Below are positions 841 through 38,346 of a DNA stretch of 39,438 nt, piece by piece. The notes beneath the pieces are model-generated. The model saw only the letters and a program-made list of their open reading frames with translations, was not told the DNA's origin and searched no databases. Source of the stretch: Candidatus Bathyarchaeota archaeon. Lineage in GTDB: Archaea > Thermoproteota > Bathyarchaeia > Bathyarchaeales > Bathyarchaeaceae. The position numbers and the translations under genes are program-made. Location: contig JAPUUO010000003.1 in the NCBI GenBank assembly GCA_026967815.1, positions 1 to 39,438 on the forward strand, written 5' to 3'. Within the stretch, counting starts at the first letter, position 1. Each line of letters opens with the position of its first letter.

Positions 841-852
841 GTGCGCGCGCGT
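841..852. repeat. Iterated (CG)n motif, representative copy; others at 1741, 5942, 7322, 10786, 14251, 14371, 21331, 31869, 33551, 33779, 35959, 38326
   Basis: GTGCGCGCGCGT; nine pure alternating-CG tracts of >=8 nt counted by eye in the window. Confidence 0.8.
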
Positions 853-1226
853 TAGATGAAGAGAATAAGCTATTTTGAGTCTTTTCTACTAGCTTGTTTC
901 CGCCACACTTTACACCATTTCTTAAGAGTTGAAGGCTTAGCATTGCCCGAGGTATAATATTCCACTTCCTCGCTCGCCGCAAGGATCGTTTCCTCAGTTT
1001 TCCCTACCCTGTTCTTCCTGTCTGACCCTGAAAAAGACGAGAGGTAGTATACTACCCTATAATAATAATCATTATAATAATCAGTAAAGCACTTGCTTCT
1101 CACCTTCAAGTTGCTTCTATCTTTTTCAAGTTGAAGCTGAATGGCGCACGCCAGTGCGCCCTCATACGCATGCGCACTTCAATCTCTTTTCCAAGCGCAT
1201 GCTGAAACTCAGAACGTGTGTGTGTG

Positions 1227-1254
1227 CTTAAATTATTAATGCAACTTCAAATGA
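1227..1254 (+). promoter_or_regulatory. Partial third copy of the conserved upstream module
   Basis: CTTAAATTATTAATGCAAC is identical to 37-55, followed by TTCAAATGA versus ATGAAATGA; ends 29 nt before the ATG at 1283. Confidence 0.7.
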
Positions 1255-1282
1255 CATATCAGTCAAATGAGAAGGGAGAGAT

Positions 1283-1594
1283 ATGAGCTGGAATGTGGTT
1301 TATACTCCGTCGAGCTCCGTGTTTCTGGGTATTGTATTGATTATTTCGGTCCTAGCACTGACCGGTCTGTCTATAGGTTATGTCCTAGCGGAAGTGGTCA
1401 AAGGTAGACACATGGCAATTGGTTCAGCTGTGTACTGGGCGATTTACTTTGTCAATTGGTACAACCGTGAGTTTCTCGCTCAAATTCCTGCAATTTACCC
1501 TTTTAGTATTCGTCTTTTGTATTCAGGGGCTCTGGTTCTGTTCTTGACTCTAGCGTATGCTATTCGAAAATATACACTCAAACGAAACGTCTAA
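1283..1594 (+). CDS. Small multi-pass membrane protein, possibly frameshifted (a fourth TM helix continues in the +1 frame to 1706)
   Basis: Three hydrophobic segments; purine-rich SD; +1 frame reads SKPSLWIRVLFSIQFILWLFPLVGVFALLIMEKLRNNH*. Confidence 0.6.
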   Translation: MSWNVVYTPSSSVFLGIVLIISVLALTGLSIGYVLAEVVKGRHMAIGSAVYWAIYFVNWYNREFLAQIPAIYPFSIRLLYSGALVLFLTLAYAIRKYTLKRNV

Positions 1595-1914
1595 ACCAAG
1601 CCTCTGGATACGCGTTCTGTTCTCAATCCAGTTCATCCTCTGGCTGTTTCCCCTAGTAGGTGTATTCGCTCTTTTAATCATGGAAAAACTCAGAAATAAC
1701 CACTGAAAGTAGTGTCAAAAACCCCATAACCAACAAACCAGCGCGCGCGAATCAGATCTCTAAACCTTCTCCTATACTCTTCTCAGGACTGAAAACTAGA
1801 ACCAATATACTATTCATACTAACAACACTACTGCAAAACACTCTTCAGCATTCCTCTAACATCATTTTTATGTAGATGAAAGAAGCTAAGATTACGCTTG
1901 GTTCGTGAGAAATT

Positions 1915-2643
1915 TTGGTTAAAACTTCTTTTTTTGCAAATGTCAGGGCTATACTTTTTGATTTCGGCGATACACTTGTATCCTTTGAAACCTTCGACTA
2001 CGAGGCTTCCTTGGCTGCGCTTCACCAAACATTGATGGAAAGTGGAGTAATCGTTCCCTATGAAAAGTTTAAGAAAACCTACTTTAAGATTAGAGATCAG
2101 CTTTACAGGGAAACCGACTCCTCTTTTAAGGAAGTCAATTTCTGTGTTCGTGTTTCTTGCGTGTTAAATGAGTTGGGATTTAATCTTAATTCTAGAGATC
2201 CTAAGATAATCAGGTCAGCTGAAGCCTTCATGTGTCCTCTTATTAAATCGCTAAAATTAGAGGAACACGTTCCCTTGGTTCTTCGAGAATTAAGTAAGAA
2301 GTATAAGCTGGGTCTTGTTTCAAATTTCGCCTATCCTCCAGCAATCAAGCAGACGTTGCGGAAATTTCACCTGTCTGAGTTCTTTGATGCCGTAATCATT
2401 TCGGGAGACATAGGTTGGCGCAAGCCAAGTTCAAAGATCTTTGACAAAGCTCTCAAAGCATTACGCGTGTCTGCTTCTGAAACAGTGTTCGTGGGCGACG
2501 CGCCTTTTCATGACATTGCGGGGGCTAGGCATGTTGGAATGAAGACAGTTTTGCTGAGGCGACGACTAGGTGAAAAAGAAAGGGCGGGCATGGATAATCC
2601 AGACGAGATAATAAGTGGATTGGAAGAGCTTCTGACGACGTAG
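1915..2643 (+). CDS. HAD-superfamily hydrolase
   Basis: Motif I FDFGDTL, LVSN, RKP, FVGD..HDI.GA...GM. Confidence 0.92.
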   Translation: MVKTSFFANVRAILFDFGDTLVSFETFDYEASLAALHQTLMESGVIVPYEKFKKTYFKIRDQLYRETDSSFKEVNFCVRVSCVLNELGFNLNSRDPKIIRSAEAFMCPLIKSLKLEEHVPLVLRELSKKYKLGLVSNFAYPPAIKQTLRKFHLSEFFDAVIISGDIGWRKPSSKIFDKALKALRVSASETVFVGDAPFHDIAGARHVGMKTVLLRRRLGEKERAGMDNPDEIISGLEELLTT

Positions 2644-2742
2644 CATGACTGTTAGATGTGGAAAGTCGATGCATATTACCTCAATTGGGTTGGTTGGGTA
2701 ATAATTTAAGGAGGACATATCTGCATACTATAAGAGACTAGT

Positions 2743-2928
2743 ATGTTGAAGAATACTTTACAGGTACAGATGGCAAGTGTGGCTCTAGTTCCGCTTCTAG
2801 TTCTTTCATTTCTGGGCTTTATCATAGTTATTGCTGTCTTGTGGAAGAAAGGTAAAACGATTGAAGCCTTGCTGGTTTGGAATTCGTTGCTCCTTTATGT
2901 CATTGCGTTGACTCTGCTTCTCAAATAG
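2743..2928 (+). CDS. Small 2-TM membrane protein
   Basis: 61 aa, two hydrophobic helices, TTTAAG box upstream. Confidence 0.55.
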   Translation: MLKNTLQVQMASVALVPLLVLSFLGFIIVIAVLWKKGKTIEALLVWNSLLLYVIALTLLLK

Positions 2929-2944
2929 AAGCTGGACTAGAATT

Positions 2945-3070: not shown

Positions 3071-3434
3071 TCCAATACACCACATGGTCAATCTATACCA
3101 GTTCTGCATAGGTTCTTATGACTTGTGGAAGAAACTAGGGTGCGCACGCGCAGCGCTATTTGTCCCAGAGTTCCACAAGTTGTCTTATCATTCTGGCCTT
3201 GGGGTTTTCCTCGTTGTATCTGAAGATACGGATTCTTCCAAATTTCTTATGCATTACAAGCTGGTGGTCTTCTAGAGCTTTTAGGTGCTGGTTAGTTGTC
3301 GCATAATTGAGTCCTGCTCGGCGGGAAATCTCTGAAATGTTTAGTTCACCGATGTCTGCGAGAATTCTCAGGATTCTAACCCTTCCTTTTGAGGAAAATA
3401 CATCTTCAATGGGCAGAGTGAAATCTCCTTCAGG

Positions 3435-5175: not shown

Positions 5176-5254
5176 TTCTCCTTTCTCCCAACTAAAGAAC
5201 GCAACTTCGAATATTTATGATTTCCAAGAATAGAGAGCTTTGTAGTGCGCCAAG

Positions 5255-5608: not shown

Positions 5609-6080
5609 GTTCCCTCACTTTCTCAGTCATCTCCCTAAAAAGCATCTCTTGATATAAAGATTAGGGAAACGCAACCTGCTCATAGTACGCCAGAGCATTT
5701 CGGCTACAGTGTTTTTTGCTTCTAAAACGCCCGCGTGGTAGGGTTCTCCACGTCAGAGGTGTGGGCTCTCGCATTCTTGGCGCGGGTGCTGTTGCACACC
5801 TTCTATCGGCGCGCTCTCAAGATCTATATCATCTGCTCAGTGGGGCCAGAGTCGTCATCGCCCACAAACAAGGTTCTGTGTCAAGCCCAAATAAAAACGT
5901 TTTTTTCAGATATCCAATCGAGAAGAATGCGGTCGCTTATGGCGCGCGCATCCTTGTTGATGTCCGCAAAGAGGGGACGGTGACCCTACAAGTCCCCGCA
6001 CTTAAAACTGAGTGGTCACTTCTACCCATAATATTAAACTAAGATGACCAGTCATAAAGGCGCAAAAAGAGGGAGAACCC

Positions 6081-7322
6081 ATGGACTTCGTTGAAAAACT
6101 CAAGAGTGAGTTCTCATTCATAAAAGGGAACTACGCAGTCATGGTAATAAGCTGGATACTGGTAGACTTCGCCGTTGAGCTGCCAGCTACATACTTCAGC
6201 CTATATGTACTCGGACTCGGGGCCACTGAAACCATTCTGGGAGTCATAGGTCTCTCTCAATTCTTGGCCTTGGCTTCCTTACAGTTTCCAGGCGGTTACT
6301 TGGCAGACAAATACGGAAGAAAATGGCTGATCTCAACAATGACCTTCGGCGTAGCCTTCAGTTTCATACTGTACGCAATCGCACCGTCATGGCCTGTGAT
6401 ACTTGTCGGAGTGATTCTAATGAGCATATTCAACTCAACCTATCAGCCAGCCTTGAACGCGATGATCTCTGACTCTCTTCCGGTCGATAAAAGAGGAATG
6501 GGATTCAGCATAGTTATGTTGATAGCAAGCGTTTCCACAACACCAAGTCCGGCCGTCGCAGGTCTGCTGCGTGCTAACTTCGGCTTAATCCCTGGAATGA
6601 GAATCGCTTACGGCATCGTCGTGGGTCTCTTTCTTATTGCAGCCTTTATCAGGTCCTTCTTCCTAAAAGAAACCGTAGTAACCTCTTCAAGGCCGCGCCT
6701 GAACGAGATATTTCAGAGCTATCCGACAGCTCTGAGAGAAAGCTTCAGCGTGTGGAGAAAAGTGCCAAAATCCATGTTATACTTATTTCTGACCTTTTCT
6801 ATCGCGATCTTTGGTTTCTCAGCTACATTCCTCTATACGGTCATATATGCAACCAGAGTGCTCCTCATCGACGAGGTAGTGTGGGCTTTCGTCACTGCAC
6901 TGGTACCGTTAACCACAATCATCCTGGCTATACCTGTAGGCAAGCTTGTAGACAAAATCAAGAGGAAAATACCCATTCTCGCTTCAATTCTGATCTTCGG
7001 GCTCTCTATGTGGATCTTCGTTAACGGGGATTTGGCAAAAGTCGCTCTATCACTAATCCTGCTGGGCGTAGGGCAGGTAATGCTCAACGCCTCCTTTGGC
7101 GCGCTGCAGACTGACTTGACACCAAAAGAGCAACGTGGAAAAGTAAGCGGGTTCATCAACTTCGCCAACTATATAGTAATGGCTTCAGGCAGCCTGCTGG
7201 GCGGATACCTATATGAGCACGTGGCTCCTCAAGCCCCATTCATGCTCGCCATAATATCAGTCCTGCCTTCATCTCTCTTGACACTGATCCTCGTGAAAGA
7301 ACCAGAGAAACGAGAAGAATAG
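6081..7322 (+). CDS. MFS transporter
   Basis: About 12 TM; motif A GGYLADKYGRK and second-half GKLVDKIKRK. Confidence 0.93.
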   Translation: MDFVEKLKSEFSFIKGNYAVMVISWILVDFAVELPATYFSLYVLGLGATETILGVIGLSQFLALASLQFPGGYLADKYGRKWLISTMTFGVAFSFILYAIAPSWPVILVGVILMSIFNSTYQPALNAMISDSLPVDKRGMGFSIVMLIASVSTTPSPAVAGLLRANFGLIPGMRIAYGIVVGLFLIAAFIRSFFLKETVVTSSRPRLNEIFQSYPTALRESFSVWRKVPKSMLYLFLTFSIAIFGFSATFLYTVIYATRVLLIDEVVWAFVTALVPLTTIILAIPVGKLVDKIKRKIPILASILIFGLSMWIFVNGDLAKVALSLILLGVGQVMLNASFGALQTDLTPKEQRGKVSGFINFANYIVMASGSLLGGYLYEHVAPQAPFMLAIISVLPSSLLTLILVKEPEKREE

Positions 7323-7503
7323 CGCGCAAAAAGCGATTTGAAACCGTTTTGAGACAAATTCTGAGACAATTTCCCATGGTTTTCCATCCGTCTTAGTGCG
7401 CGGTTCTCTAGAATCGTTTTGCGAAGTGCCTTCATACGTGTGGATGGTGAAAATGTTATAAAGGCTTGATGTTATTATGCAGATTCACTTTGGAGAGGAA
7501 GAT

Positions 7504-10500
7504 ATGAGGGTTCCCTTGCTTAGAAAAATCTGGGTGATCGGGATTGTAATTCTGTTTCTTGTTGCGAGCTGGACGGTGGTTCTTAGTCGCAATACGTCTG
7601 TCGTAGCTGCAGGGGCTACTATCTATGTTGATGCTGACAACGTCACCGGCCCGTGGGATGGAAGTCATGACTACCCTTATCAAAACCTCACCAGCGGGTT
7701 AGCCCATGCCTCTAACGGTGATACCGTTGTTGTCTTGGGTGGAACGTATAGTGAGAACGTTGTGGTGAACAAGAGCGTAACGTTGACAGGTGAGTCGAAG
7801 CCGGTTATTGATGGGATGAGCGGTCTCTACGGCTTGAATATCACCGTTAACAACGTTACTGTGCAAGGGTTCAACATAACGAATGCGGATTTTGGTATCT
7901 ACACGAACGCTTCGGGGTTCTCCATATTAGACAACGTCTTCTGGTATGACAATTACGGATTCTATTGGAATGTCTCCGAAAGCAGCCTTGCTGAGGATTA
8001 CACCCTCTATGCTAGCACGATCAAATACAACGAGTTTTACCTGAACACCGATAACGCGGCGGTATTTGTTTTTGTCACATTAAATTACAGCTCCAATGTC
8101 GGCTACGATGTTGATGTAGGGGATATTGCAATATGCAGCAATACGTTTTACATGGATGGAACAAGTGCGACCGGCATTGATGTTGAGTATTTCTATGTAG
8201 AAGCTCTTTATGGGGGAACGATTTCTTTCGGCGTCTTTAACATGTCTGGAAATACCATGTCTGGCGGAGCGTATGGCATTGATTTCTGGGGATACCTTGA
8301 AGATCTTCGAGATGTGCAAGCAAGCGTCGGTGATGTGATAATTACGAACAATGCGATGGTAAACCAGTCGTTCGGTGGCATGTACTTTGATTATTATGAT
8401 GGGGACTACTGGTATGGAAATACGGTAGGCACGTACGGAGACCTTGTAATAACGGACAATACGATAACGTCTGTGTATGACGCGGATGGCATCTACCTTT
8501 CAGACATTGGGTACTGGTATGACTTCTATGATTATGCTCGTCTTGAAGTTGGCGACGTGTACATTGAAGAAAATGAAATAGACGTTGGCGGAGACGGAAT
8601 CCATTTGTATGGCACTGAAGCTGGAAACTATTTGTACGACAATTCGTCCTTTACAATGGGGCACGTCCTTGTCAGAGACAACACAATCATCAGCGGCTGG
8701 TATGGAATATACATTGAATTCGAGTATTTTGGCTACGACATGAATGGTAGCTCTTCCTTCACGATGGGCAGCATCCTTGTAAACGACAACACCATCACCA
8801 GCACTGCCGATGGAATCTACGTAAAATACATGGAATATTTTGGAGAAGACATGACCGGCAACTCTTCCTTCACGATGGGTAGCCTCGAGTTCAGCCGCAA
8901 CACAATAGACAGCACCTACGAAGGAATCCATATCGACGACTTACTTGAATTCGGCAACTACATGTCCGACAATTCGTCCTTTGCGATGGGCAGCATCCTT
9001 GTAAACGACAACACCATCACCAGTGCTGCCGATGGAATACACCTGACCGGACCCTACTACTTGGGCTACGACATGAATGGAAAGTCCTCCTTCACCGTGG
9101 GCAACATCCAGTTCAACGGCAACAGCATCACCAGCGGCGGCGAGGGAATATACCTTTCTTACTTAGAGTACTACGGACAGGGCCTGCACGACTCATCCTC
9201 CTGGTTAATGGGCAACATCCAGTTCAACGACAACACCATCACCAGCGACGACTATGGAATGTACATCGGCTACATCGATACTTTTGGCGACGACATGACA
9301 GGTAACTCCACCTTCACGATGGGTAGCCTCGAGTTCAACGGTAACGTAATCAACAGCACCCTTGATGGAATGTACTTGTTCCAAATCTACTATTTCGGCT
9401 GGGTGTATGACAACGCATCTTTCACAATGGATCACTTCTCTGTAAATGACAACGTCGTTAACAGCGGCGATGATGCGATCCACCTTTATTACATGGAACC
9501 TTTTGGCACGCACGTCTACGACCACGCGTCTTTCACAATGGGTAACATCGAGTTTGACGGCAACCTAGCTAGCAACAGCGATGCTGGCATGAACTTGACG
9601 GATCTGGAAAATGCAATAGTCCGAAATAACATACTGCAAAACAGTTCCTACGGGATCTACCTGCAAAACTCAGGTAACAATTCTATTTACCATAACAACT
9701 TCATCAACAACACAGTTCAAGCCTACGTCACGGTGAACGACAACAGCACGTGGGACAACGGGTATCCGTCGGGGGGAAACTACTGGAGTGACTACAGTGG
9801 CGTCGACGAGTTTAGCGGTCCCGACCAGAATGAGCCCGGAAGCGATTTCCGAGGTGACACCCCCTACGCCATCAACGCCAACAACACCGACCGCTACCCC
9901 TTCATGATCCCCCGTGAAACGACTCCGCCCACCATTGTCCTCCTGTCTCCCGAGAACACGACTTACGCGCTAAGTACTGGCATCTCGCTGACTTTCACCC
10001 TCGATGAGCCGGCTGCATGGATCGGCTACAGCATCAACGGACAAGCCAACGTGACTCTCACGGGCAACGCCACGCTGCCGACCCTCCCGGACGGGTGGCA
10101 CCACGTGACCATCTATGCAAATGATACCTTCGGCAACATGGGAACGAACACCGTGTCCTTCACCGTGGACACCACGGCTCCAGCAGCCCACGCGGGTCCG
10201 GATCAAACCGTCGACGAAGATACCGCTATGACCTTCGACGGCTCCGCTTCAACCGACGACAACGGCATTGCCACGTACACCTGGACCTTCACGGACGGGA
10301 CGCCTCAAACCTTGAGCGGCGAGAATCCCATCCACACGTTTACTACACCTGGAACCTACACCGTGACCCTTGAGGCGACAGATCCCGCAGGTAACACTGC
10401 GACCGACACTGTCGTGATCACCGTGCTTGACGTCACTACACCGGTCGCCGATGCAGGAACAGACCAAACAGTGAATCAAGGAGCAAGTGTCGCTTTTGAC

Positions 10501-10782
10501 GGGGGCGGCTCAACGGATAACGTGGGCATCGCCAGCTATGCATGGGACTTCGGCGACGGAGCATCTGCGACCGGCAGAACGACGACTCATGAATACGCGA
10601 ACGCCGGCACCTACACGGTCACGTTAGCTGTTGAGGATGCGGCGGGCAATCAAGCGACTGACACCGCAGTGATCACCGTGAACCCGACCGAAGCTTTTCC
10701 AATGTGGGCTGTGGCGGCAGTTGGCATCGTAGCAGTGGGCATAGTCATCGCAGCAGTGATCTTCTGGAAAAGGCGAAAATAG
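7504..10782 (+). CDS. Cell-surface protein: signal peptide, NosD/pectin-lyase-like parallel beta-helix with 36-37 aa tandem repeats, Ig-like domain, 2 PKD domains, C-terminal TM anchor
   Basis: IYVDADN..GPWDGS..YPY; NNSIYHNNFINN; WDNGYPSGGNYWSDY; PKD motifs YTWTF/YAWDFGDG..GTYTVTL; ends in hydrophobic helix + WKRRK; alternative start 7477. Confidence 0.9.
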   Translation: MRVPLLRKIWVIGIVILFLVASWTVVLSRNTSVVAAGATIYVDADNVTGPWDGSHDYPYQNLTSGLAHASNGDTVVVLGGTYSENVVVNKSVTLTGESKPVIDGMSGLYGLNITVNNVTVQGFNITNADFGIYTNASGFSILDNVFWYDNYGFYWNVSESSLAEDYTLYASTIKYNEFYLNTDNAAVFVFVTLNYSSNVGYDVDVGDIAICSNTFYMDGTSATGIDVEYFYVEALYGGTISFGVFNMSGNTMSGGAYGIDFWGYLEDLRDVQASVGDVIITNNAMVNQSFGGMYFDYYDGDYWYGNTVGTYGDLVITDNTITSVYDADGIYLSDIGYWYDFYDYARLEVGDVYIEENEIDVGGDGIHLYGTEAGNYLYDNSSFTMGHVLVRDNTIISGWYGIYIEFEYFGYDMNGSSSFTMGSILVNDNTITSTADGIYVKYMEYFGEDMTGNSSFTMGSLEFSRNTIDSTYEGIHIDDLLEFGNYMSDNSSFAMGSILVNDNTITSAADGIHLTGPYYLGYDMNGKSSFTVGNIQFNGNSITSGGEGIYLSYLEYYGQGLHDSSSWLMGNIQFNDNTITSDDYGMYIGYIDTFGDDMTGNSTFTMGSLEFNGNVINSTLDGMYLFQIYYFGWVYDNASFTMDHFSVNDNVVNSGDDAIHLYYMEPFGTHVYDHASFTMGNIEFDGNLASNSDAGMNLTDLENAIVRNNILQNSSYGIYLQNSGNNSIYHNNFINNTVQAYVTVNDNSTWDNGYPSGGNYWSDYSGVDEFSGPDQNEPGSDFRGDTPYAINANNTDRYPFMIPRETTPPTIVLLSPENTTYALSTGISLTFTLDEPAAWIGYSINGQANVTLTGNATLPTLPDGWHHVTIYANDTFGNMGTNTVSFTVDTTAPAAHAGPDQTVDEDTAMTFDGSASTDDNGIATYTWTFTDGTPQTLSGENPIHTFTTPGTYTVTLEATDPAGNTATDTVVITVLDVTTPVADAGTDQTVNQGASVAFDGGGSTDNVGIASYAWDFGDGASATGRTTTHEYANAGTYTVTLAVEDAAGNQATDTAVITVNPTEAFPMWAVAAVGIVAVGIVIAAVIFWKRRK
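8600..9600 (+). repeat. Intragenic 108-111 bp tandem repeats (>=9 units)
   Basis: Equivalent codons at 8656, 8764, 8875, 8986, 9097, 9208, 9319, 9427, 9538; ATGGGCAGCATCCTTGTAAACGACAACACCATCACCAG is identical at 8764 and 8986. Confidence 0.9.
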
Positions 10783-10799
10783 TTTCGCGCGCGCAGTCA

Positions 10800-11396
10800 T
10801 TATTGCCTGAAATGCTTTTTGAAGACCTCAAAAATCTCCTCAGGCCTTTCCAGAATGAACACATCATCCATGGTGGCTAGCTTCTTCACATGTTCTACAT
10901 CTTCTTTTCTTATCCTCAATTTAAAGTCTCGTCCATTAGGAAGTGTCGTAATTATTTCTCCTTCTTTGTAGTCAGAAGGCATTATGTAAACGGGAACGAA
11001 GCCTTTTAGGCCCATGATTGCTGCGTTGCAGAGTAATGTGTCTGCCATTCCCGTTGAAATCTTTGCTACAGTATTGGACGTCGCTGGAGCAATCAACAGG
11101 AATTCAAACTTTCCCGTTTGCAATTGACCTGCCAGAAACGGCGTATTTGCATCGATTTCAACCCGAATTGTGCCAAAATTCTCTTTTAAACGATCAGCCA
11201 GCCTATAGTATTTGGCGACAAGGTTTCCTGCTCTGGAAAGATAGACTATTATGTCGACCCTTCCTTGATACTGCTTCTTTATCCTCTTCATAATCTCAAC
11301 AGTTTCGACTAGGCGGTCACCGCTTCCTGTTATTCCCCAGGCAACTTTCCTTATCTTCTCTTTCTCTTCTTTCTTCAGTTTCATTTCCACAACCAT
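10800..11396 (-). CDS. afpA: Archaeoflavoprotein AfpA (HFCD flavoprotein family)
   Basis: KVAWGITGSGD, PFLAGQLQTGKFEFLLIAPATSNTVAKI..G.ADTL. Confidence 0.85.
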   Translation of the reverse strand: MVVEMKLKKEEKEKIRKVAWGITGSGDRLVETVEIMKRIKKQYQGRVDIIVYLSRAGNLVAKYYRLADRLKENFGTIRVEIDANTPFLAGQLQTGKFEFLLIAPATSNTVAKISTGMADTLLCNAAIMGLKGFVPVYIMPSDYKEGEIITTLPNGRDFKLRIRKEDVEHVKKLATMDDVFILERPEEIFEVFKKHFRQ

Positions 11397-11400
11397 GTTT

Positions 11401-12003
11401 CTAACCCCTAATCTTGTTTTCGAACCTCAATTGCTCCAAGAGCCCTGCAAACTTCTCAACAGATTTCTTCAAGCTTCTGAAACCTTCGTCATCCTTTTTC
11501 ACGCCCTCCAGAGTGTCTTTTGACCAAAAAGTTGCCCCCAAGTTTGCTCCAAAGGAACCGCCGCTAATTGGAAGGATGCCGTTTAGAATGTAAAATGTTA
11601 TGATTTGCTGAATTGCCAGTTCTTGTCCGCCGATTCTGTCTCCTCCAACTGCCATTGCCATACCGACTTTATGCTCGAAAACGGTGCGGTCTGCTGCAAC
11701 TAAAGCTCTACATCTGTCCATAACAGCCTTTGTTTGTGCACTAATTCCACCGTTATAAACGGGTGACGTGAATATTATTCCTTTGGCATCTTTGAGCAGA
11801 GGATAGAGCGAGTACATGTCATCCTTAACTGCGCACTCTTTGTTTTCCAAGCAGTAGTCGCAATGCCTACAGAACCCAATGTCTTTGCCTCTGACGGTGA
11901 AGAATTCCGTTTTGAACCCAATCTTTTCCAGCATGTCCAAACCTTTTCTTAGGACATATTCAGTTGCCTGTTTTCGTGGGCTCCCACAAATGCCAACTAT
12001 CAT
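11401..12003 (-). CDS. Iron-sulfur flavoprotein (flavodoxin-fold, Isf-like)
   Basis: GICGSPR, CxxCxxCx5C (CRHCDYCLENKEC), SPVY, KAVMDR, GGQE. Confidence 0.9.
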   Translation of the reverse strand: MIVGICGSPRKQATEYVLRKGLDMLEKIGFKTEFFTVRGKDIGFCRHCDYCLENKECAVKDDMYSLYPLLKDAKGIIFTSPVYNGGISAQTKAVMDRCRALVAADRTVFEHKVGMAMAVGGDRIGGQELAIQQIITFYILNGILPISGGSFGANLGATFWSKDTLEGVKKDDEGFRSLKKSVEKFAGLLEQLRFENKIRG

Positions 12004-12331
12004 GGTACTTCATCAGACTTCTATAATTGTTAGAGTCAATAAAGGTTGCCGAGATGCTTGGCAAGTCGATAGGCTATAGATGGCAAAGCTGCACGCGCAG
12101 TTATGACCATTTTCCTTTTTCGAGTTTGAGTCTCCAAATTTGCTTTTCCCCAGTTTCTAAGCTGAGTTGCTTGACTATGCTCGCAGGAACTATTGCCTAC
12201 ATGTGGCGTGGACGTTAGGATTTACCTCCATATCTTAATAACCCGCTTGCTTCACCAGTTGGCACGTCTAAAGAATCGGTAGGTGCAAACAATCATAAAG
12301 GGCTGAGCTACAATTGCGGTGTTGACCTAAA

Positions 12332-26081: not shown

Positions 26082-26281
26082 CAGTTTGTATATGGTTAAT
26101 TTCTTGTTTACATAAGTAAAGGCATATATAGCCTTTGCTTTTTATGCACACGCATTCATAGTATGAGATAAACCTGCACTATGCACAGAACCTCAACAGT
26201 TATAAAACAGAAAAACTTCTTACTTGTAGCCAAAAGCAACATAGAAAACCATAGAACCTGAAACATGGAGTGTACAATGAG

Positions 26282-26603: not shown

Positions 26604-26764
26604 CGACTGGCTAGTCTCTGATTTGGTTTGTTAACAAAGTCTCTATTTGGGACACAAAAGGAGTGCAACATCGAATTTTAGGATATATATGATGTATAAG
26701 CTCTGACTCTTATTTCAATAACTTAACAACACGCGTATATTTGAGTCGGTTTCCAGACAAGAAA

Positions 26765-29283: not shown

Positions 29284-32200
29284 CTACATGCTTTCCTTTT
29301 TTAGAAGCAGTTCGCTCTGTAGATATCTCTGATTATACATCTTCGTTACCCTCAGAAAGCGTTCTAAACCTCTTTCAGTATCTTTCTCGTAGATGTTGAT
29401 CTGTCCTTCGAAGAGACCTAGAATCGCTTGAACATCTTCTGGGGAATGCATCTGAGGATTCATTACAGCTAGAGTAGTGAAGCCTTTTGATCTTAGGTTT
29501 GTAATGAATCCGGTTAGCCATCTCCTGGTTGAAACAGCGTGATGCTGGAGCAAAACGTCTGAAATGATTTCGATGCAAGCCCTTCTTGGCTCCCTTGGCA
29601 ATGCGCTCAACTTGCGGAAAGCCGAAGTCATGGCAATACTGATGTTAGTAAGGTTTTCTACGCCTCTTAGTTTGAAAACATTGGGTAGGCTTTTGATCAC
29701 TTTGTCAGCTTGAGGGTTGCATATGAAAAGATAGAGGCTTGACTCCAATTCTTCCAGCGCATTTACTCCACTCGCCTTTATGGTTACATAAAACGTGACT
29801 TGACCTTTTTTTGCTCCTGCTTCAAGAAATCTCTTAATCAGTAGCTCCTTTTCATCGCAGGAAGCTGAGGTGACTATCACTGCATAATTCTCAGGTATCC
29901 CTCCAAACAGCACGCAGTCAAGACTTTTGTACCCTGTCTCAACACGACCTGGAAGAGTAACCTCTGAAACGTTAATTACTACAGGTTCAGGTTCGCAGGA
30001 AATTTCGCTTCCAGTTTCATTCACATAGATAATTCGTGGCTTTATTGCAAACGTACCTTGGCTAAATGACCTAAGGATAAGCCTAACTTCTTCCGTTCTT
30101 AGTGGGTCAAGCTTCTTTCCCTTCATTTCAAGGCATGCGTTTTCAAGGTTACAGTACCCGGGTCTGGCAACGAGCTCGAAGCCTTGAGGGAGGATTCCTT
30201 CGACCTTAGTCAATAAAGCTGCTTCTTTTCCTACATTTGTAATCTGCATTTCCAAGTTGATGTTCTCTCCAGCTGTTGCCTTGGCCGAACTCAAGGAAAG
30301 GTTGGCTTCGATGGCAGCATGTTCAAACTTGTCCAAGCCAACGGCTTTTTCGTGAGTTGGAGTTGGTGTAGTGAAAGAGCTTGTCGTTGAAGCGACTGTC
30401 GGAGCTTGCAACACCTCGGTAAGCGACATGACAAGCTGTTGTTCTTCTTTGACGCTCTCCAGAAGCCTTTGAACTTCTTCACTTTTTTCAGGATATTTTG
30501 CCTTCATGTAGGAGCTAACTGAGGCTTGAAGAAGTTTTTGAGCCATCTGGTAGCACTTTGCTTTGGTTCTCAGATCCGTCTCTGTTTCGGCCCTGCTCAT
30601 GTAAACGTAGGCGTCGAAGAGCCTGTGAGTAGCTCTAGCATATTCCGAGGCGGATTTGAAGCCTGATTTGAGATAGCAGCTTGACGCAGCTTCTAGGTGT
30701 CTTTTAGCTATCGAATACTCTGCCATATTTCTTGTAATTTCAAATTCTGTTCCAGCTTCTAAAGCCTTACAAAAACTGCTGTTGGCCAGAGCCAATAGGC
30801 TTGTCTGTTTGTCAATCGTGTGTTCTTTAGCTGTTCTAAATAGTTCTGCTGCTTCTCCATACAATGTTGACGAAGCCTTTGCTTCTGCCATCATCATTTT
30901 CTGCCAGGCTTGGCAGAGATAGACTATGGGCAAAAGCTCCTTGCGGCTCTGCCCTGACTCGGCTTCTGCTATCTCCTGGAACATTTCTGCTGCTAACTTG
31001 TATCTTTTCGAACTCGCTATGCAATCACCCTGCCTGTCGTGGATCTTTCCCTCTTCTACCACAACTCGTCCAATACAATATGCTTTTCTAGTGTCTGAAG
31101 CTTTAATCAGCTTGCTAGCCAGGTTTTTTTCATCTGCATTCTCGATTCTTTCTAACTTGTCTCGCAGAGTCCTCTTAGCTTCACTGAAGAGCTCAGCTGC
31201 TTTTCGGAAGGCTTGTATGGCTTCTTGAGTCTTCTCACCTCTGCTTAAACCTTCACCGTGCTCCAGCTGGACCCAAGCAAGATAGTTTGCAGCAAGATGT
31301 TTCCAGGATTTGGAAGACTTGTGTAGACTGGAGACTTTCTCGTAATGCGTCATGGCCTGAAAATGCTCTTGTCTTGCGTGATGGTGCCTTGCTTTTTCGA
31401 TTTCGCTCCACGCCTGCATGTAACGGGTGTAGTCCAAGTAAAAACCCTTTAACCGTGGCAGTTTTTTGGCAGCAGCCTTGTAGCTTTCTGACGCTGCCTC
31501 GAAGCTTTCCGCAGATCCCATATAGTTTTGCAGCTTGTTGTGAGCTCTAGCTAGTTGCCAGTGACCCTCAGCAATGCGACTAGGTAATTCAGCTTTTTCA
31601 TATGCTTTGATGGCACCTTCAAAGATCTTTACCAGCCTACCTACAAGTTCGTAAGTGCCGGTTATCTGGTAAAGGCGACTGAGAATTCCCCCGAAGTCGA
31701 AGTAATATCCTCCTAGCACAGCGTGTTGTTCTCGACTTAAGATTTCGTGTCTCAAGCATAGATTTATGCATTTTTCAGCACTTTCAATTCCGTCTTCAAG
31801 AAGCTTTACTTTTAGTGTGCTATTCTCCTCTATCCTTGCCAGCTCAGCTTGTATCAAGGCTAGATAATGCGCGCGCACGCCCTGATTCCAGAAGAAATAT
31901 GGCATTGCTTGTTCTAGTGTTTTAATGTTTTCTTCTCTAAATTGAAGCGACTCTTTAAGAAGACGCTTTTTCACGTCTGCGTCTGTCTCCATGGTAGAAA
32001 GCAAAAACAGAGACTTGCCAAGTGGGTGAAGGATCAACCATGTAGCTCCTATAGAGCCTGAACGCCGCGCATGTTCCAAACCTTTTCTTCCAGCCTCGAT
32101 GGATCTTTTGAGGAGAACGCGTTTTTTTTCTGAGCTAGTTTCGACAAACTCGGCCAAAATATTGTAGTTTTCGGCGAGCCAACAGTAACTAGACGCTATC

Positions 32201-33362: not shown

Positions 33363-33614
33363 CTATCCGGTTGCTGGGGGATGCTCATCAAGTCCGCACC
33401 AAACTTCAATGTCATGGAGACCATGCTCCATGAACAATTTGATAATTTGCCTAACGTCTGCGCCATCAAAGTAAGCTATTGTACTATAAGGCCCATTGAT
33501 AACATGAACATGTATGGTACCAGCACCCTGGTATGAATCTTGAATGCGTTGCGCGCGCGTGTTGAGTGTTTTCCAATCGGTGCCCTTCGCCACAACGAAA
33601 CCATGCCGCGTCAA
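33363..33614 (-). CDS. Hypothetical protein
   Basis: 83 aa, AGGTGA SD before TTG, pyrimidine-rich terminator-like tract downstream. Confidence 0.6.
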   Translation of the reverse strand: MTRHGFVVAKGTDWKTLNTRAQRIQDSYQGAGTIHVHVINGPYSTIAYFDGADVRQIIKLFMEHGLHDIEVWCGLDEHPPATG

Positions 33615-33793
33615 AAAATCACCTTTTAAACCATAAATTGCTTATACCTTGATTTAAAACTTTTCGTTCTTCAGAAAATTTTACAGAAAACAAACATTGA
33701 GGTGATATATTCGAGTTAATGATGCGTAAAATCAGGGCTGACCTCTGTTACACAAACGCTTGCATGATACGGATTTTTCGCGCGCGCACCTGC

Positions 33794-35940: not shown

Positions 35941-36385
35941 TTAGGGCCTCTGCCGCCACGCGCGCACAGTTTCATACCACATAACTCTTGTGCTAAGTAT
36001 GCCCAGAATTATCGCAAAGACACTGTAGAAATCTACTTGCCTGAATTGAGTCAAGAAAAAAACCAGCAGGGTCGTAAACATGCTAGCATATAGCAAGCAA
36101 CGTGGAAACATGAAGGTGCCGAAGCGGACGAACTGTTTTGGAACTCCAATATTCACGGCTTTAACTAGCCGATACTCTCCACGTATTTTTTTCTACTAGC
36201 CCCAACTCTGTGAGTTTGTCCAAATGATAAACAGCAAGTGCTGGACTTGAAAATCCTAAAGCGCGTTGAGTCCCCCTAACTCCTACAACGCCATTTTCTG
36301 CTCGCAGTAGGAACCAGTAAACCTTAAGCGTGTTGCCACGAAGAACATTAGCAACGTCTTCATTCTTGAACGTAAATTTCCCCAA
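35941..36385 (-). pseudogene. Membrane-anchored wHTH protein split by a +1 frameshift in an A7 run (36186-36192)
   Basis: Removing one A joins ORF 36161..36385 (HTH, QRALGFSSPALAVYHLDKL) to 35941..36156 (2 TM) as GLVEKIRGEYRLVKAVNIGVPKQF. Confidence 0.78.
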
Positions 36386-36524
36386 GATCCTGATCCAAGC
36401 ATACTTGCAATAGGTTAGGCTGAAACTTGTTAAAAGAATTACCCGTTAGCGTTAAACATAGAGAAACCTCCTAGTGTTTTCCCCGTCTTTTGCAAGCGCG
36501 TTATTCTAACTTTTCAACCAATTA

Positions 36525-36576
36525 TTACCAAAAAGTAACGTTTATATATTACTGGATAGTAATTACGTTATGGTAA
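36525..36576 (+). promoter_or_regulatory. TATA box flanked by three TTAC-N6-GTAA palindromic operator sites
   Basis: 36525-36538, 36549-36562 and 36563-36576 around TTTATATA (36541-36548). Confidence 0.75.
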
Positions 36577-36592
36577 CAAGAGGCGAGATTGT

Positions 36593-37006
36593 ATGAAACT
36601 GAAGCTGCAACTAGTTCGCGACGGAGAAGTATTATTTGACATCTCCATTTCTCCTACGGACTGGCCAAGAGAGCAGCTGGAAAACGAATTAGAGGCTTTA
36701 GAAGATGACTTTCAAAGATTTTCAAAGATTTTTGATGCCTTGTGCCATGAGACCCGCTTGAGGATGATGAAACGACTCATGGAGGAAGAAGACCGCACAA
36801 TAAACTTTGCAGATTTCATGCGGGACCTAAATTTGAATCCCAAAATTGTTTGGGAAAACGCCAAAAAACTCAGAGAAGGGGGGCTCTTAGAAAAGGTCGA
36901 CAGGGGAATATATCGTTGTTCAGATTTTGGGCAGAGAAGATTCATTCTGATAAGCTTCGCATTTAGGCGTCTAGTAGAGGCTCTGGAAGAAATGGAAAAC
37001 TACTAG
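36593..37006 (+). CDS. ArsR-like winged-helix regulator, probable heat-shock operon regulator
   Basis: FDALCHETRLRMM, LREGGLLEK..RGIY; first gene of the hsp20 operon. Confidence 0.8.
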   Translation: MKLKLQLVRDGEVLFDISISPTDWPREQLENELEALEDDFQRFSKIFDALCHETRLRMMKRLMEEEDRTINFADFMRDLNLNPKIVWENAKKLREGGLLEKVDRGIYRCSDFGQRRFILISFAFRRLVEALEEMENY

Positions 37007-37020
37007 GGAGGTGAAAAATA

Positions 37021-37593
37021 ATGTCATCTGACGAATTTGGAGAATTTGATGTGTTCAAAAGCGACCTCAAGAAGATAATTCAGAGAATGATGAGCGAGAT
37101 TAAGAATGCGACAAAAAACGGGAACCTCAAAGGCAAATGGGAGATCAACGAAATTGATAGAGACGGTGTAAAAGGATACAGTATTCAGGGACGCTTTGGA
37201 CCAGGTCAACCCTGGAAGCCGCTTGATCCCTTTAATCCCTTTGAACCACAGAATCCTATGAGGCCCCGACCAGGGCCGCAAAGACCATTTGAAGTTCCAC
37301 CGAGTGCTTTGAAAGAGACCAGCGAACCGCTTACGGATGTCTTCGAGGACGAGAAGATGATAAAGATCTATTTTGAAGTGCGAGGTGAAGATAAGAATGA
37401 TATACGATTGAATGTCACCGCAGGCAAGGTTGAGGTTAAGGCTAAAAACTTTTACAAGATGATTAACCTGCCGACAAGTAATATCATACTTGAAAAAGCA
37501 TCGTCAAAGTGCAAGAACGGTGTGCTTGAAGTAATAATTCCAAAGAAAGAGAAGACTCTTGAAAACGATGCGCGCAAGATAAATATCGACTAA
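37021..37593 (+). CDS. hsp20: Archaeal small heat-shock protein Hsp20
   Basis: EPLTDVFE, FYKMINLP, KNGVLEVIIPK, terminal IxI (KINID); GGAGGTGA SD. Confidence 0.9.
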   Translation: MSSDEFGEFDVFKSDLKKIIQRMMSEIKNATKNGNLKGKWEINEIDRDGVKGYSIQGRFGPGQPWKPLDPFNPFEPQNPMRPRPGPQRPFEVPPSALKETSEPLTDVFEDEKMIKIYFEVRGEDKNDIRLNVTAGKVEVKAKNFYKMINLPTSNIILEKASSKCKNGVLEVIIPKKEKTLENDARKINID

Positions 37594-37598
37594 TTTCA

Positions 37599-38315
37599 GT
37601 GAGCATTATGGTAGAAATCTTCAATATTAACTATAATCAGTATGTTGATGTCGTTGGTACTGCTCACTTTACAAGACGTAGCATTAACGATGCCTATGAG
37701 TCAATAAAGTCTTTGAACCCTAAAGATGTCGCCATCGAACTCGATTGGACACGCTTCCAACATCTCAACACCGCATGCATAGGTTGCCCAAAAAGCGGAT
37801 CATGCAAAGGTCTCTGTGAATTCACTGGAGCCGCGGAAGCCTTAGGAAACGTCGACACCAACATATGGCTGATAGACATGACAGAACAAGAGATCCGACG
37901 CAGGATAAGAAGCAGAATGACCCCTTCCGAGAGAACTCGGATGGGCTTTCAGGTATACTATGAGGTAGATGAGGATCCCATTTGGCTTTGGGAGAAAGGG
38001 TTCAAGGACAGAGTGATCAACAACTCTAAAAAGCAGATAGAAGCCAGTCGACAGTTTTTTCCTTCTGTATGGCGGGTTCTTGTAGATGAACGAAATGCTT
38101 TAATGTCTGCTAGATTAGCGTGGATAGCGTCAAAGAATTTACATATCCATACAAGAAAGGACTCTAAGATACTTGCATTTGTCGGAGCTGCTCACGTTGA
38201 AGGAATAAAGGACCTGCTTATGGACCCCCTTCTAATCAAAGATCAGCTTAGAAGATTTCACTTATCGTTTACGGAGCCAACCCTTATCAGAAGAGTAGCC
38301 ATTCAATGGAACTAG
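37599..38315 (+). CDS. TraB/PrgY/GumN-like domain protein
   Basis: VVGTAH, VAIELD..R, LVDERN..M, FVGAAH..GI; inserted CIGCPKSGSCKGLC. Confidence 0.78.
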   Translation: MSIMVEIFNINYNQYVDVVGTAHFTRRSINDAYESIKSLNPKDVAIELDWTRFQHLNTACIGCPKSGSCKGLCEFTGAAEALGNVDTNIWLIDMTEQEIRRRIRSRMTPSERTRMGFQVYYEVDEDPIWLWEKGFKDRVINNSKKQIEASRQFFPSVWRVLVDERNALMSARLAWIASKNLHIHTRKDSKILAFVGAAHVEGIKDLLMDPLLIKDQLRRFHLSFTEPTLIRRVAIQWN

Positions 38316-38346
38316 CGCTGTTTCAGCGCGCGCGCATATAAACCAA

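Follow-up and report, generated by a model that had tools for sequence, protein, structure and literature searches.

The window analyzed here is a stretch of 39,438 nucleotides of contig JAPUUO010000003.1 from a Candidatus Bathyarchaeota archaeon. It carries a Cdc6/Orc1 block and genes for a HAD hydrolase, two MFS transporters, a PKD surface protein, flavoproteins, an FMN reductase, Alba, a KaiC-domain protein, AspRS and an intron-bearing tRNA, among which short tracts of alternating C and G are scattered (Table 1). The nine tracts of 8-10 nt and the four of 6-7 nt reported in the initial annotation were all found where it had placed them, and the seven purine-pyrimidine variants it had listed proved to be genuine alternating R/Y tracts, 8-13 nt long and with 1-3 CpG each. 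Five further CG 6-mers, absent from its list, occur at 5809, 7099, 20607, 33040 and 37570.

Table 1. CG tracts, decayed tracts and an associated segment in the window.
Feature	Positions	Strand	Location
GCGCGCGCG run, 9 nt	843..851		Inside 1.2-kb spacer 708-1914
GCGCGCGCG run, 9 nt	1741..1749		Spacer 708-1914, 165 nt upstream of HAD hydrolase gene
GTGCGCACGCGCA, decayed tract	3140..3152		Edge of conserved Cdc6/Orc1 block
GCGCGCGC	5942..5949		Left junction of 4.85-kb segment; length constant in 3 samples
GCGCGC	7322..7327		Overlaps MFS gene stop codon
4.8-kb stretch (PKD surface protein, flavoprotein, FMN reductase)	7472..12271		CGCGCGCG instead in one contig of another sample
CGCGCGCGC, 9 nt	10786..10794		Convergent stop codons on both sides; right junction of 4.85-kb segment
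TGCACGCGCA, decayed tract	12090..12099		Divergent spacer, FMN reductase gene (11401-12003, minus) / gene 12332-13309 (plus)
GTGTGCGC	13313..13320		4 nt past stop codon of gene 12332-13309
CGCGCGC	14251..14257		4 nt past stop codon of gene 13776-14246
Second CG 7-mer	14371..14377		Near 14251 tract
GTGCACGCGCGT	20602..20613		Between convergent genes
CGCGCGCGC, 9 nt	21331..21339		62 nt from 3' end of intron-bearing tRNA gene (21401-21499, minus)
TGCACACGCA	23096..23105		Right edge of 1.4-kb stretch (second MFS gene)
Purine-pyrimidine variant, alternating R/Y tract	26143..26155		
ACACGCGTATAT	26729..26740		Spacer where 7.3-kb stretch begins
GCGCGCGC	31869..31876	-	Inside 1310-aa KaiC-domain gene; encodes G-V-R-A-H
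GCGCGCGCG, 9 nt	33551..33559		792-nt spacer, right end of 7.3-kb stretch
CGCGCGCGC, 9 nt	33779..33787		792-nt spacer, ~150 nt before promoter block
CGCGCGC	35959..35965		Conserved AspRS stretch
GCGCGCGCGC, 10 nt	38326..38335		Convergent spacer, 10 nt past stop codon of gene 37599-38315

Abundance, length and proposed decay of the CG runs

In the whole genome (G000, 1.348 Mb, GC content 44.5%), the two most over-represented 8-mers relative to an order-3 Markov background are GCGCGCGC (z=34) and CGCGCGCG (z=29). The former occurs 94 times, as against 9.0, 6.5, 16.3 and 36.9 occurrences expected at orders 1, 3, 4 and 5, respectively, and the latter 71 times, as against 7.2, 5.2, 13.1 and 30.5. 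The enrichment claimed in the initial annotation thus holds over dinucleotide- and tetranucleotide-aware backgrounds, and the signal is non-random and genome-wide. In the 245.7 kb of non-coding DNA, GCGCGCGC was counted 79 times (1.2 expected at order 1 and 7.4 at order 3), and in the 1.10 Mb of coding DNA, 12 times (7.8 and 3.1 expected). The signal is family-wide in this lineage and patchy across the class.

The runs of 6, 7, 8, 9, 10, 11, 14 and 15 nt number 128, 42, 47, 28, 13, 2, 1 and 1, respectively, which gives a shoulder at 8-10 nt that the other alternating dinucleotides do not show. Runs of at least 8 nt amount to 92 in the case of CG and to 19, 22, 23, 52 and 62 in that of AT, AC, GT, AG and CT. 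The window, with 2.9% of the genome length, holds nine of these 92 CG runs.

If the tracts were microsatellites growing by slippage and tolerated only in unconstrained DNA, their link with junctions would reflect a common lack of constraint. One pure 7-nt expansion inside well-aligned flanks (C29 4822) is consistent with this idea, as is the length of the spacers carrying a run (median 226 nt, as against 96 nt in those without). However, the window runs at 1741, 5942 and 10786 keep the same length across contigs of three samples (without any gaps at 1741, in records 1, 18 and 25), and two other sites show no length change across contigs 94-99.8% identical. The 8-10 nt shoulder, with its stop at about 11 nt, is unlike other dinucleotide repeats, the tracts lie exactly at the ends of homology, and their association with broken gene adjacency, described below, holds per kb and after correction for spacer length. 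Slippage therefore seems a very improbable origin. One further site among near-identical contigs differs by two C/T transitions, and variants with an internal transition show a 3.2-3.8-fold enrichment, as against 1.2-1.3-fold for those with a transversion.

Position relative to genes

The runs are mostly intergenic, as the initial annotation had proposed: 78 of the 92 lie outside the genes called by a crude in-house caller, whereas 81% of random 9-mers are coding. The window run at 31869 is an incidental coding occurrence, its stretch aligning end to end with paralogues, and that at 35959 is probably incidental as well: relatives with an AspRS 87-91% identical have CGCTCGC or AGCTCGC there, one substitution off.

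The proximity to stop codons noticed previously applies to a minority of the runs: 13 of the 52 sides facing a gene 3' end are at most 10 nt away from it (12% expected, p = 0.007). Gene 5' ends are avoided, since only one of the 72 sides facing one is at most 10 nt away. As regards the reported ending in GCA, an A does follow 71 of the 115 run ends finishing in C, but there is no conservation further out, and what is conserved in the flanks is limited to one base per side.

These features were considered in the light of the possibility that the tracts are selected sites, binding a chromosome-organising or boundary protein, serving as a methylation target or acting as a supercoiling sink. The extreme non-coding enrichment and the persistence of the signal through the whole family would fit such a role, and so would the neatly palindromic T(GC)nA that is the most frequent form, the GC phase outnumbering the CG phase at 8 nt (33 vs 14 in G000 and 44 vs 17 in congener G004). 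However, only about 5% of the spacers carry a run, and no class of spacer is preferred: the 24 divergent, 14 convergent and 24 tandem cases are equally enriched. In orthologous spacers of a congener with ~87% amino-acid identity, a run of at least 8 nt is kept in one case out of eight, and in one out of seven in the reverse direction. A C5 cytosine methyltransferase, the only class searched for, was found in 4 of the 41 relatives and is unrelated to the signal, which argues against the methylation site suggested initially. Selected sites are therefore an improbable explanation. The CG tracts are not conserved gene-boundary signals, and a role in terminating transcription is not supported: what stands of the original interpretation is the genome-wide, lineage-wide, non-coding signal, and not its selection as a marker of gene boundaries.

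Two families of repeats invite comparison. In cyanobacteria, the highly iterated palindrome HIP1 (GCGATCGC) occurs about once per kb and is frequent inside genes. The two systems have in common a single GC-rich palindromic octamer as the most over-represented word of the genome, but the present motif, found about once per 14 kb, is nearly confined to non-coding DNA (79 vs 12), its length varies and its positions are not conserved, so that its near absence from genes does not bear out the HIP1-like nature initially suggested. The REP elements and BIMEs of bacteria are described, in the part of the source available, as imperfect extragenic palindromes of 20-40 bp with a conserved tetranucleotide head (PMC3733652). 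As far as this description goes, they resemble the tracts in being short palindromic DNA limited to spacers, often just past genes, and differ from them in that the CG core here is 8-10 nt long and nothing is conserved outside it.

Tracts at junctions of lost, inserted and rearranged DNA

When the window is compared with its congeners G001 to G004, many tracts coincide with the ends of homology. The genes flanking spacer 708-1914 have matches in G001 only on separate contigs. Homology of the Cdc6/Orc1 block to all four congeners begins at 3154/3155, the DNA to the left differs in all five genomes, and remnants of the GTGCGTGCA and GTGTGCAC types are present at this edge in G004 and G003. The 4.85-kb segment encoding the MFS transporter and the PKD surface protein is missing in G004 at the corresponding place; at position 10786, G002 and G004 have no run, each with different DNA on the left. 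At 7322, homology to G003 contig C76 stops exactly at the tract, where G003 has ACGCGC, and the same MFS gene is preceded in G003 by GCGCGTGCGC in another neighbourhood. Homology blocks of G002, G003 and G004 start or end at 13303-13317, near the 13313 tract, and homology to all four congeners stops at 14240-14256, near the 14251 tract, which bounds on its left side a 529-nt stretch missing in G004.

Further to the right, a match to G002 with 94% identity (window 21398-21541) covers the tRNA gene plus 42 nt of 5' flank, and G002 has GCGCGCGC 27 nt past the end of this match, on the side opposite to the window run. The 1.4-kb MFS stretch between two tRNA genes is absent from G003, which carries ACACACTCCGCA at the matching place of the empty site. 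The 7.3-kb stretch following the Alba gene is missing in G001 and G003, and G001 links its flanks by a 79-nt junction containing GCGCGCGCG; the promoter block common to the window, G001, G002 and G003 starts at ~33932. To the right of the 38326 run, homology to G004 resumes only at 38669. In other relatives, homology of L105 and L101 to L113 breaks off where CGCGCGCG starts, at its first base, and that between L113 and L102 resumes at the first base of GCGCGCGC. CG runs thus look like sitting at joins where DNA was lost, inserted or reshuffled, and the recombination hotspot is the nearest of the four options originally put forward.

In a contig from another sample (a single assembled contig, depth 7.9, the shorter side being 30 letters long), position 7471 is joined to 12272, 4800 nucleotides being skipped; the sides share no letters and are separated by CGCGCGCG, which fits neither of them, and at neither breakpoint does the window carry a CG run. 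The full genome-versus-genome comparison covered one pair, G000 and G004, both incomplete bins (72% and 64%), and yielded 44 indels with an anchor on each side. In 6 of these a run of at least 8 nt is present in the short allele, and in 10 a run of at least 6 nt, as against 0.69 and 1.38 expected from random length-matched non-coding pieces (P = 0.0003 and below 0.0003). In four indels (C23 21736-22296, C67 12525-13805, C64 4512-5755 and C54 6176-6537), little or nothing but the tract separates the flanks, and the breakpoints of the long allele are free of runs. Since the breakpoint lies inside an intact G000 gene in the C23 and C64 cases, the tract-bearing allele is a derived deletion. The C90 46844 case is not clean filler, and resembles a microhomology deletion with local substitutions creating the run.

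This pattern is not general. All the run-bearing short alleles fall among the 33 indels in which G004 has the short allele, none being found among the 11 with G000 as short allele. A tract is missing in 10 of the 15 tight junctions (at most 25 nt between flanks), and none of the 33 distinct short alleles at the 80 metagenome loci from other relatives has a run.

Gene order also links the tracts to joins, adjacency being lost about 3-7 times more often at spacers with a run. Of the spacers for which both neighbouring genes have an orthologue, 7 of the 15 with a run in G000 and 13 of the 20 in G004 no longer keep the adjacency, as against 72/426 and 44/400 of those without one; with spacer length and gene orientation corrected for, the odds ratios are 3.1 (p = 0.035) and 7.5 (p = 0.0001), respectively. 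Per kb of spacer, run-holding spacers number 0.15 where adjacency is kept and 0.31-0.55 where it is broken. Within spacers, a homology end lies at most 3 nt from a run in 6 cases in G000 (1.9 expected) and 9 in G004 (2.8 expected).

A cassette-type system, in which the tracts would be recombination sites or ends moving gene modules, like integron attC sites or transposon ends, might account for the window modules of one or few genes bounded by tracts (5942, MFS, 7322, later PKD, 10786, flavoproteins, 12090) and for the 4.85-kb stretch with a run on each side missing in G004. However, site-specific excision predicts sites at both breakpoints of the long allele, and these are lacking in C23, C64, C67, C54 and the window joint. 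In addition, conservation around the tracts does not extend past the first flanking base, and the genes listed beside the modules are of housekeeping type only, with no recombinase seen among them. We give this explanation little credence.

Origin of the tracts

The reading we favour, with some confidence though by no means firmly, is that the tracts are self-complementary CG filler from end-joining junctions, which later decays by transitions. When broken DNA is rejoined in this lineage of Bathyarchaeia, whether sequence has been deleted, a gene module inserted or the gene order altered, an alternating C/G tract, usually of 7-10 nt, would often be left at the join. That it is copied from neither flank was shown by the joints described above. 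Repair of the end-joining type might add or extend CG at the ends. As (CG)n is self-pairing in both directions, two ends carrying such tails could always anneal and be sealed. Tracts would accumulate in spacers because joins within essential genes are lost, and would survive more easily just past stop codons than in promoters. Their length would not be changed by slippage, while C-to-T and G-to-A decay would yield the TG/CA-containing variants also listed in the initial annotation.

Alternatively, the tracts may have come first, alternating CG being fragile or recombination-prone, for example as Z-DNA-prone sequence or as an optimal microhomology that can serve in either orientation, so that breaks and illegitimate recombination occur at existing tracts. 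Z-DNA-prone and other non-B fragile sequences do provoke double-strand breaks, and alternating purine-pyrimidine CG tracts at rearrangement breakpoints are what the present case shares with them. Several sites speak for this order of events: the boundary at 3154 is common to five genomes, with remnants in three or four and unrelated DNA on the left in all; L113 and L102 have a tract in common (GCGCGCGC vs GCGCGTGT) exactly where homology restarts; the empty site of G003 already has a decayed tract where the window adjoins the extra MFS gene; and the MFS gene at 6081-7322 is flanked by tracts on both sides in two genomic neighbourhoods. However, in the clean deletions and the window joint, the long allele has no tract at either breakpoint, and in the clean cases the tract is missing from the ancestral allele and present only in the joined product. 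The matching sides in the other genome carry a run of at least 8 nt at the same rate for rearranged junctions with a run (3/40) and for those without one (19/256), and this reading leaves the origin of the tracts unexplained. Tracts preceding the breaks are thus a rather unlikely general account. Some boundaries have nevertheless been used repeatedly at one tract (3154, common to five genomes, L113/L102 and 23096), which is compatible with tracts being a cause of breaks as well as their result, and that some tracts serve again as later breakpoints is partly shown.

Filler or N-nucleotide addition at end-joining junctions is familiar from eukaryotic TdT, Pol mu and Pol lambda, from the templated insertions of Pol theta and from the non-templated addition by bacterial LigD. 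The tracts resemble such filler in being extra letters at junctions supplied by neither flank, but they have a defined sequence (alternating CG, self-complementary, mostly 7-10 nt) instead of a random or locally copied one, leave a genome-wide footprint and occur in an archaeon whose genome (G000) yielded no Ku. Ku was likewise not found in 36 of 38 other relatives. No enzyme accounting for the tracts was found: neither Ku (at class level) nor PolX nor the Y-family polymerase tracks the signal. The Thermococcus litoralis polymerase reportedly synthesizes repeats without a template (papers by Ogata and Miura). Template-free making and extension of short self-complementary repeats by DNA polymerases in vitro are described in the available part of a further source (PMC13061963). 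By analogy, untemplated polymerase synthesis is a possible source of the CG filler, although the products described there are long and of the AT type, and that part of the text draws no link with cellular repair or CG (PMC13061963).

No published description of the CG-tract junction pattern was found in the literature. If the end-joining reading is true, the CG runs would be traces of a hitherto undescribed process by which DNA breaks are rejoined.

Abundance and placement of the alternating CG tracts

The nine alternating C/G runs of 8-10 nt and the four of 6-7 nt listed in the initial annotation were all found in the window, which also holds five more 6-mers of this kind; the seven purine-pyrimidine variants listed with them are all alternating tracts, 8-13 nt long, with one to three CpG each. 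In the whole bin to which the window belongs as contig C110 (G000; 1.348 Mb, 111 contigs, 44.5% GC), GCGCGCGC occurs 94 times, as compared with 9.0, 6.5, 16.3, and 36.9 occurrences expected under Markov models of orders 1, 3, 4, and 5, respectively, and CGCGCGCG occurs 71 times (7.2, 5.2, 13.1, and 30.5 expected). The Markov-corrected k-mer check proposed at the outset thus bore out the enrichment: these two words are the most over-represented 8-mers, GCGCGCGC coming first, and the following ranks are occupied by transition variants, CGCGCGCA and GCACGCGC among them. Run lengths in G000 form a shoulder at 8-10 nt, with nearly nothing above 11 nt. This shoulder is absent from every other alternating dinucleotide in the same genome, and the run-length pattern is repeated in the congener G004.

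Genes were called with a simple caller of our own (1258 genes covering 82% of G000). Outside the called genes lie 78 of the 92 runs of at least 8 nt, while random 9-mers are 81% coding. GCGCGCGC was counted 79 times in the 0.25 Mb of non-coding DNA (1.2 expected at order 1, 7.4 at order 3) and 12 times in the 1.10 Mb of coding DNA (7.8 and 3.1 expected). The tracts resemble HIP1 in that one fixed palindromic octamer is far over-represented (94 vs. 6.5 at order 3). However, HIP1 is abundant within genes as well as between them, and the sparseness of the CG tract in genes speaks against the HIP1-like palindrome proposed previously.

Of the runs, 24 fall in divergent spacers, 14 in convergent ones, and 24 in tandem ones, with 13 at contig edges and three over the 3' ends of genes, and they avoid the first 50 nt upstream of genes. 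As to the proximity to stop codons claimed in the initial annotation, a modest excess does exist, since 13 of the 52 sides facing a gene 3' end are within 10 nt of it (12% expected, p = 0.007), but runs are equally present in divergent spacers. The marking of gene boundaries is therefore a by-product only, the tracts behaving unlike terminators or promoter elements; a transcription terminator or gene-end signal, which needs downstream-only placement, was rejected in view of the 24 divergent cases. No conserved flanks or larger repeat were detected past the first flanking base at the 184 run ends analyzed, where the only preference was for T before the tract and A after it. The tracts differ in this respect from REP/BIME elements, which are 20-40 bp imperfect palindromes with a conserved head, GTAG or CGTC (PMC3733652). 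Among the 8-nt runs, the GC phase outnumbers the CG phase by 33 to 14 in G000 and by 44 to 17 in G004.

The only known RNA families or tRNAs detected in the window were three tRNA genes, none of which is overlapped by a tract. Two of them (see table) probably carry introns, because they were found by Rfam yet missed by ARAGORN. The coding run at 31869 was considered as a possible gene-fusion joint and ruled out, the protein aligning end to end with its paralogues. In the 1310-aa protein listed in the table, only a C-terminal KaiC-type ATPase domain was recognized; at least five further copies or fragments of this family are present in G000 and several in G004.

The spread of the signal was assessed from the fraction of GCSSSSGC words that are GCGCGCGC (its share; uniform expectation 6%), the sole control for the GC content of the relatives. 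In the family to which the window belongs, this share amounts to 12-75% in 22 of 24 other genomes, the remaining two (G021 and G023) being at 2%; elsewhere in the order, it is 0-3% in 14 of 16 genomes and 23-24% in the other two. Across an even sample of 151 Bathyarchaeia genomes, the share ranges from 0 to 83% and reaches at least 20% in 25 genomes (our own tally). The high-share genomes cluster in a few families (f1, f6, f26, and f31, and parts of f9, f24, and f25).

Tracts at broken adjacencies and at junctions

In the synteny breakpoint analysis suggested in the initial annotation, broken gene adjacency was commoner at run-bearing spacers in both genome directions. Adjacency is kept at 8 of 59 run-bearing spacers in G000 and at 7 of 68 in G004, as compared with 354 of 1033 and 356 of 860 run-free spacers. 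Among spacers with orthologues for both flanking genes, adjacency is disrupted at 7 of 15 run-bearing vs. 72 of 426 run-free spacers in G000, and at 13 of 20 vs. 44 of 400 in G004. After adjustment for spacer length and orientation, the odds ratio amounts to 3.1 (p = 0.035) in G000 and 7.5 (p = 0.0001) in G004, the two directions not being independent. Per kb of spacer, run-bearing spacers number 0.15 where adjacency is kept vs. 0.31-0.55 where it is broken. This full comparison covers one pair of genomes, both incomplete bins, with G004 scaffolded from 257 pieces. Within individual spacers, BLAST matches terminate no more than 3 nt from a run six times in G000 (1.9 expected) and nine times in G004 (2.8 expected), a test in which the junction effect is mixed with the preference of the tracts for stop codons. 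Three comparisons among metagenome contigs of other relatives show homology halting or resuming at the first base of a run.

Several such boundaries occur in the window itself. G004 lacks the DNA bounded by the runs at 5942 and 10786, which encodes an MFS transporter and a PKD surface protein, and in that genome the two flanks adjoin each other. Homology with the congener G003 stops exactly at the GCGCGC that overlaps the stop codon of the MFS gene. At the decayed tract 3140-3152, homology with all four congeners begins 2 nt after the tract, and the DNA to its left is unrelated in all five genomes. In the congener G001, the Alba gene is joined to the promoter block (33932) by a 79-nt junction with GCGCGCGCG, whereas the window has 7.3 kb at this place.

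The block to the right of the decayed tract is conserved in four congeners and also contains a DUF2153 gene and a small ORF missed by our gene caller; it could be a replication-origin neighbourhood. A non-coding segment within it, which is conserved despite differing neighbours, gave no match in Rfam and may represent a small RNA or regulatory DNA; contigs from other samples part from the window inside it, at 5833 and 5865. In the contigs of three other samples, the end of the PKD gene looks hypervariable or recombined, while the neighbouring flavoprotein gene hardly differs. Three ORFs are preceded, at a distance of 30-130 nt, by a promoter-like element of about 30-40 nt (core CTTAAATTATTAATGCAAC), which has dozens of matches (about 90% identity) in all four congeners and may be a regulatory element common to a gene set. 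A search for gene remnants in the spacers of the window was negative apart from one weak match, an ORF which may be a small gene rather than a remnant because it has its own promoter-like element.

Features of the window and its relatives noted in the analysis
Feature	Coordinates	Strand	Observation
Promoter-like element	37-64, 1227-1254, 39302-39341 (minus strand)		matches congener DNA
ORF, possibly a small gene	1334-1585		48% identity over 91 residues to C-terminal part of a 407-aa paralogue
Conserved block	3154-5923		holds the Cdc6/Orc1 gene
Cdc6/Orc1 gene	3435-4619	minus	
Small ORF	4843-5175	minus	81% amino-acid identity in G004
Non-coding segment	5746-5902		76-88% identity in G002, G003, G004
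PKD surface-protein gene end	10473-10659		within last 300 nt of the gene; dense substitutions
tRNA genes	15999-16093, 21401-21499 (minus strand)		95 and 99 nt
KaiC-type protein gene	29284-33216	minus	1310 aa
C5 methyltransferase match	C68:1849-2550, C68:3593-3982		profile positions 2-227 and 227-320
CG run vs. G-rich patch	G000:C5:3104-3112 vs. G004		CGCGCGCGC vs. TGGGTGGGG
CG run vs. G-rich patch	L100 vs. L103 (relatives' loci)		GCGCGCG vs. GGGGGCC

Contigs of four public samples were compared with window positions 1-20000. In one contig from the sequencing run X15, position 7471 is followed by CGCGCGCG and then directly by 12272, with no letters shared by the two sides, and neither breakpoint of the window has a CG run; this joint is a single contig (depth 7.9) with a shorter side of 30 letters. 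Parts of the skipped stretch are covered by other contigs of the same sample. The comparison of G000 with G004 gave 44 indels anchored on both sides, in which the longer version measures 300 nt or more and the shorter one 150 nt or less. The short allele carries a run of at least 8 nt in six of them and of at least 6 nt in ten, as compared with 0.69 and 1.38 in length-matched random non-coding pieces (P = 0.0003 and <0.0003, respectively). All ten belong to the 33 cases in which the G004 allele is the short one; no run was found in the 11 short alleles of G000, nor, in a replication on 80 metagenome loci, in any of 33 short alleles. At four clean junctions (C23, C67, C64, and C54), 6-9 CG letters stand between the flanks without any counterpart at either G000 breakpoint, so that letters supplied by neither flank were observed at these four G004 junctions as well as at the 7471/12272 joint. 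Junctions C14 and C15 have a run followed by about 40 unassigned letters, the alignment at C90 is messy, and in the 15 tightest junctions the run is absent from 10. The fact that one breakpoint of C23 and of C64 falls within an intact G000 gene indicates that the tract-bearing allele is a derived deletion. Integron attC sites are imperfect inverted repeats of 60-150 nt which flank every cassette on both ends. The CG tracts differ from them in having a core of 8-10 nt with no conserved flanks, and the long alleles are tract-free at their breakpoints in five cases.

Stability and origin of the tracts

Reciprocal best hits between G000 and G004 number 683, at a median amino-acid identity of 87%. 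In spacers between genes adjacent in both, only one of eight G000 runs has a counterpart run of at least 8 nt in G004, and conversely one of seven; in the spacer alignments, the tracts appear variously as pure insertions, replacements, and substitutions. Among closer strains they are stable: the window runs at 1741, 5942, and 10786 are gap-free in contigs of three samples, which originate from different studies, and at two sites in other relatives the run length is identical across contigs 94-99.8% alike, while a third shows two C/T transitions. A slippage microsatellite or contingency repeat was rejected, there being no copy-number change among close strains, as far as contigs, which hide rare variants, can tell. 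Internal transition variants of the octamers are 3.2-3.8-fold enriched and transversion variants 1.2-1.3-fold, which fits tracts arising in one step and then decaying through point mutation and explains the purine-pyrimidine variants. At two unrelated places with well-conserved flanks, the CG run is matched in a relative by an equally long G-rich patch (see table).

On balance, the CG tracts are probably filler added at joins, which is the reading we rank first. An enzyme would tail or extend broken ends with alternating CG, and the ends would then anneal and be ligated. The added CG would provide microhomology on demand, an alternating CG tail being able to pair, whatever the direction, with every tail of its kind; since the tail is self-complementary in this way, two ends of any kind could anneal. 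At the X15 joint and the clean deletions, tracts are present where none stood before. The counterpart sides of rearranged junctions carry a run in 3 of 40 cases, which is the background rate (19 of 256); this favours tracts as a consequence, and recombination between tracts present in both parents was rejected on the same grounds. The second-ranked explanation, that the tracts are fragile or recombinogenic sites, seems unlikely to us as the cause, although it is compatible with filler. Boundaries at 3154, 23096, and L113/L102 (loci of other relatives) have been used repeatedly, the MFS module is bordered by tracts at either end in two distinct contexts, and the tract sequence is compatible with a Z-DNA-forming fragile site; the clean deletions, however, had no earlier tract at their breakpoints. 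The recurrence of these boundaries and of the MFS module with its tracts suggests that existing tracts are also reused.

Candidate enzymes and significance

The filler reading has a likeness to end joining, in which the letters at the join come from neither flank (here, 6 of 33 short alleles have a run vs. 0.69 expected), but the CG signal does not follow the distribution of Ku or PolX, the members of the classical machinery (Ku, LigD-type or PolX polymerase) that were profiled. To our knowledge, homology-free double-strand-break repair is poorly known in archaea, most of which lack Ku.

None of the four families profiled follows the tract signal. The C5 cytosine methyltransferase (PF00145) was found in 4 of 41 relatives (G000, G023, G036, and G040) without any relation to the signal, and was therefore rejected as its driver, which, for this methylase class, gives no support to the methylation link raised in the initial annotation. 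Its sole match in G000 consists of two pieces about 1 kb apart (see table), and the gene may be interrupted or split. Ku (PF02735) occurs in two of the 41 relatives, G019 and G023, both weak-signal members of the family, and the PolX palm domain (PF14792), also rejected, in 11 of 41, patchily and with weak scores, the presence or absence of both being uncertain in incomplete bins. The mutual exclusion of Ku and signal hinted at by the relatives was ruled out by the class sample, where Ku is present in 23 of 151 genomes and a high share in 5 of 23 Ku-positive vs. 20 of 128 Ku-negative ones. The Y-family polymerase (PF00817) is present in 56 of 151 genomes, including 16 of 25 high-share vs. 40 of 126 others (our own tally, on genomes that are kin). 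This polymerase is enriched in high-share genomes, yet neither necessary nor sufficient: many signal-free genomes have one, and it is absent from the strong genomes G017, G115, G166, and G167. Template-free synthesis of self-complementary repeats by polymerases in vitro is described in PMC13061963. A full-text search, judged mostly from abstracts, found no publication on such CG tracts in archaea.

That some Bathyarchaeia lineages have a dedicated, undescribed CG-tailing pathway for joining DNA ends is possible rather than probable. Such a pathway would seal deletions and stitch in foreign or relocated gene modules, shaping the flexible genome. For annotators, the CG tracts should be taken neither as terminators nor as regulatory sites. 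If the reading is true, a filler of defined, self-complementary sequence would constitute a new way to join unrelated ends, and the abundance of GCGCGCGC would be a readable record of the amount of such joining, its share in GCSSSSGC words giving a simple read-out of illegitimate recombination in uncultivable organisms. CG joining could explain the gain and loss of transporter and surface-protein modules in these abundant sediment archaea.
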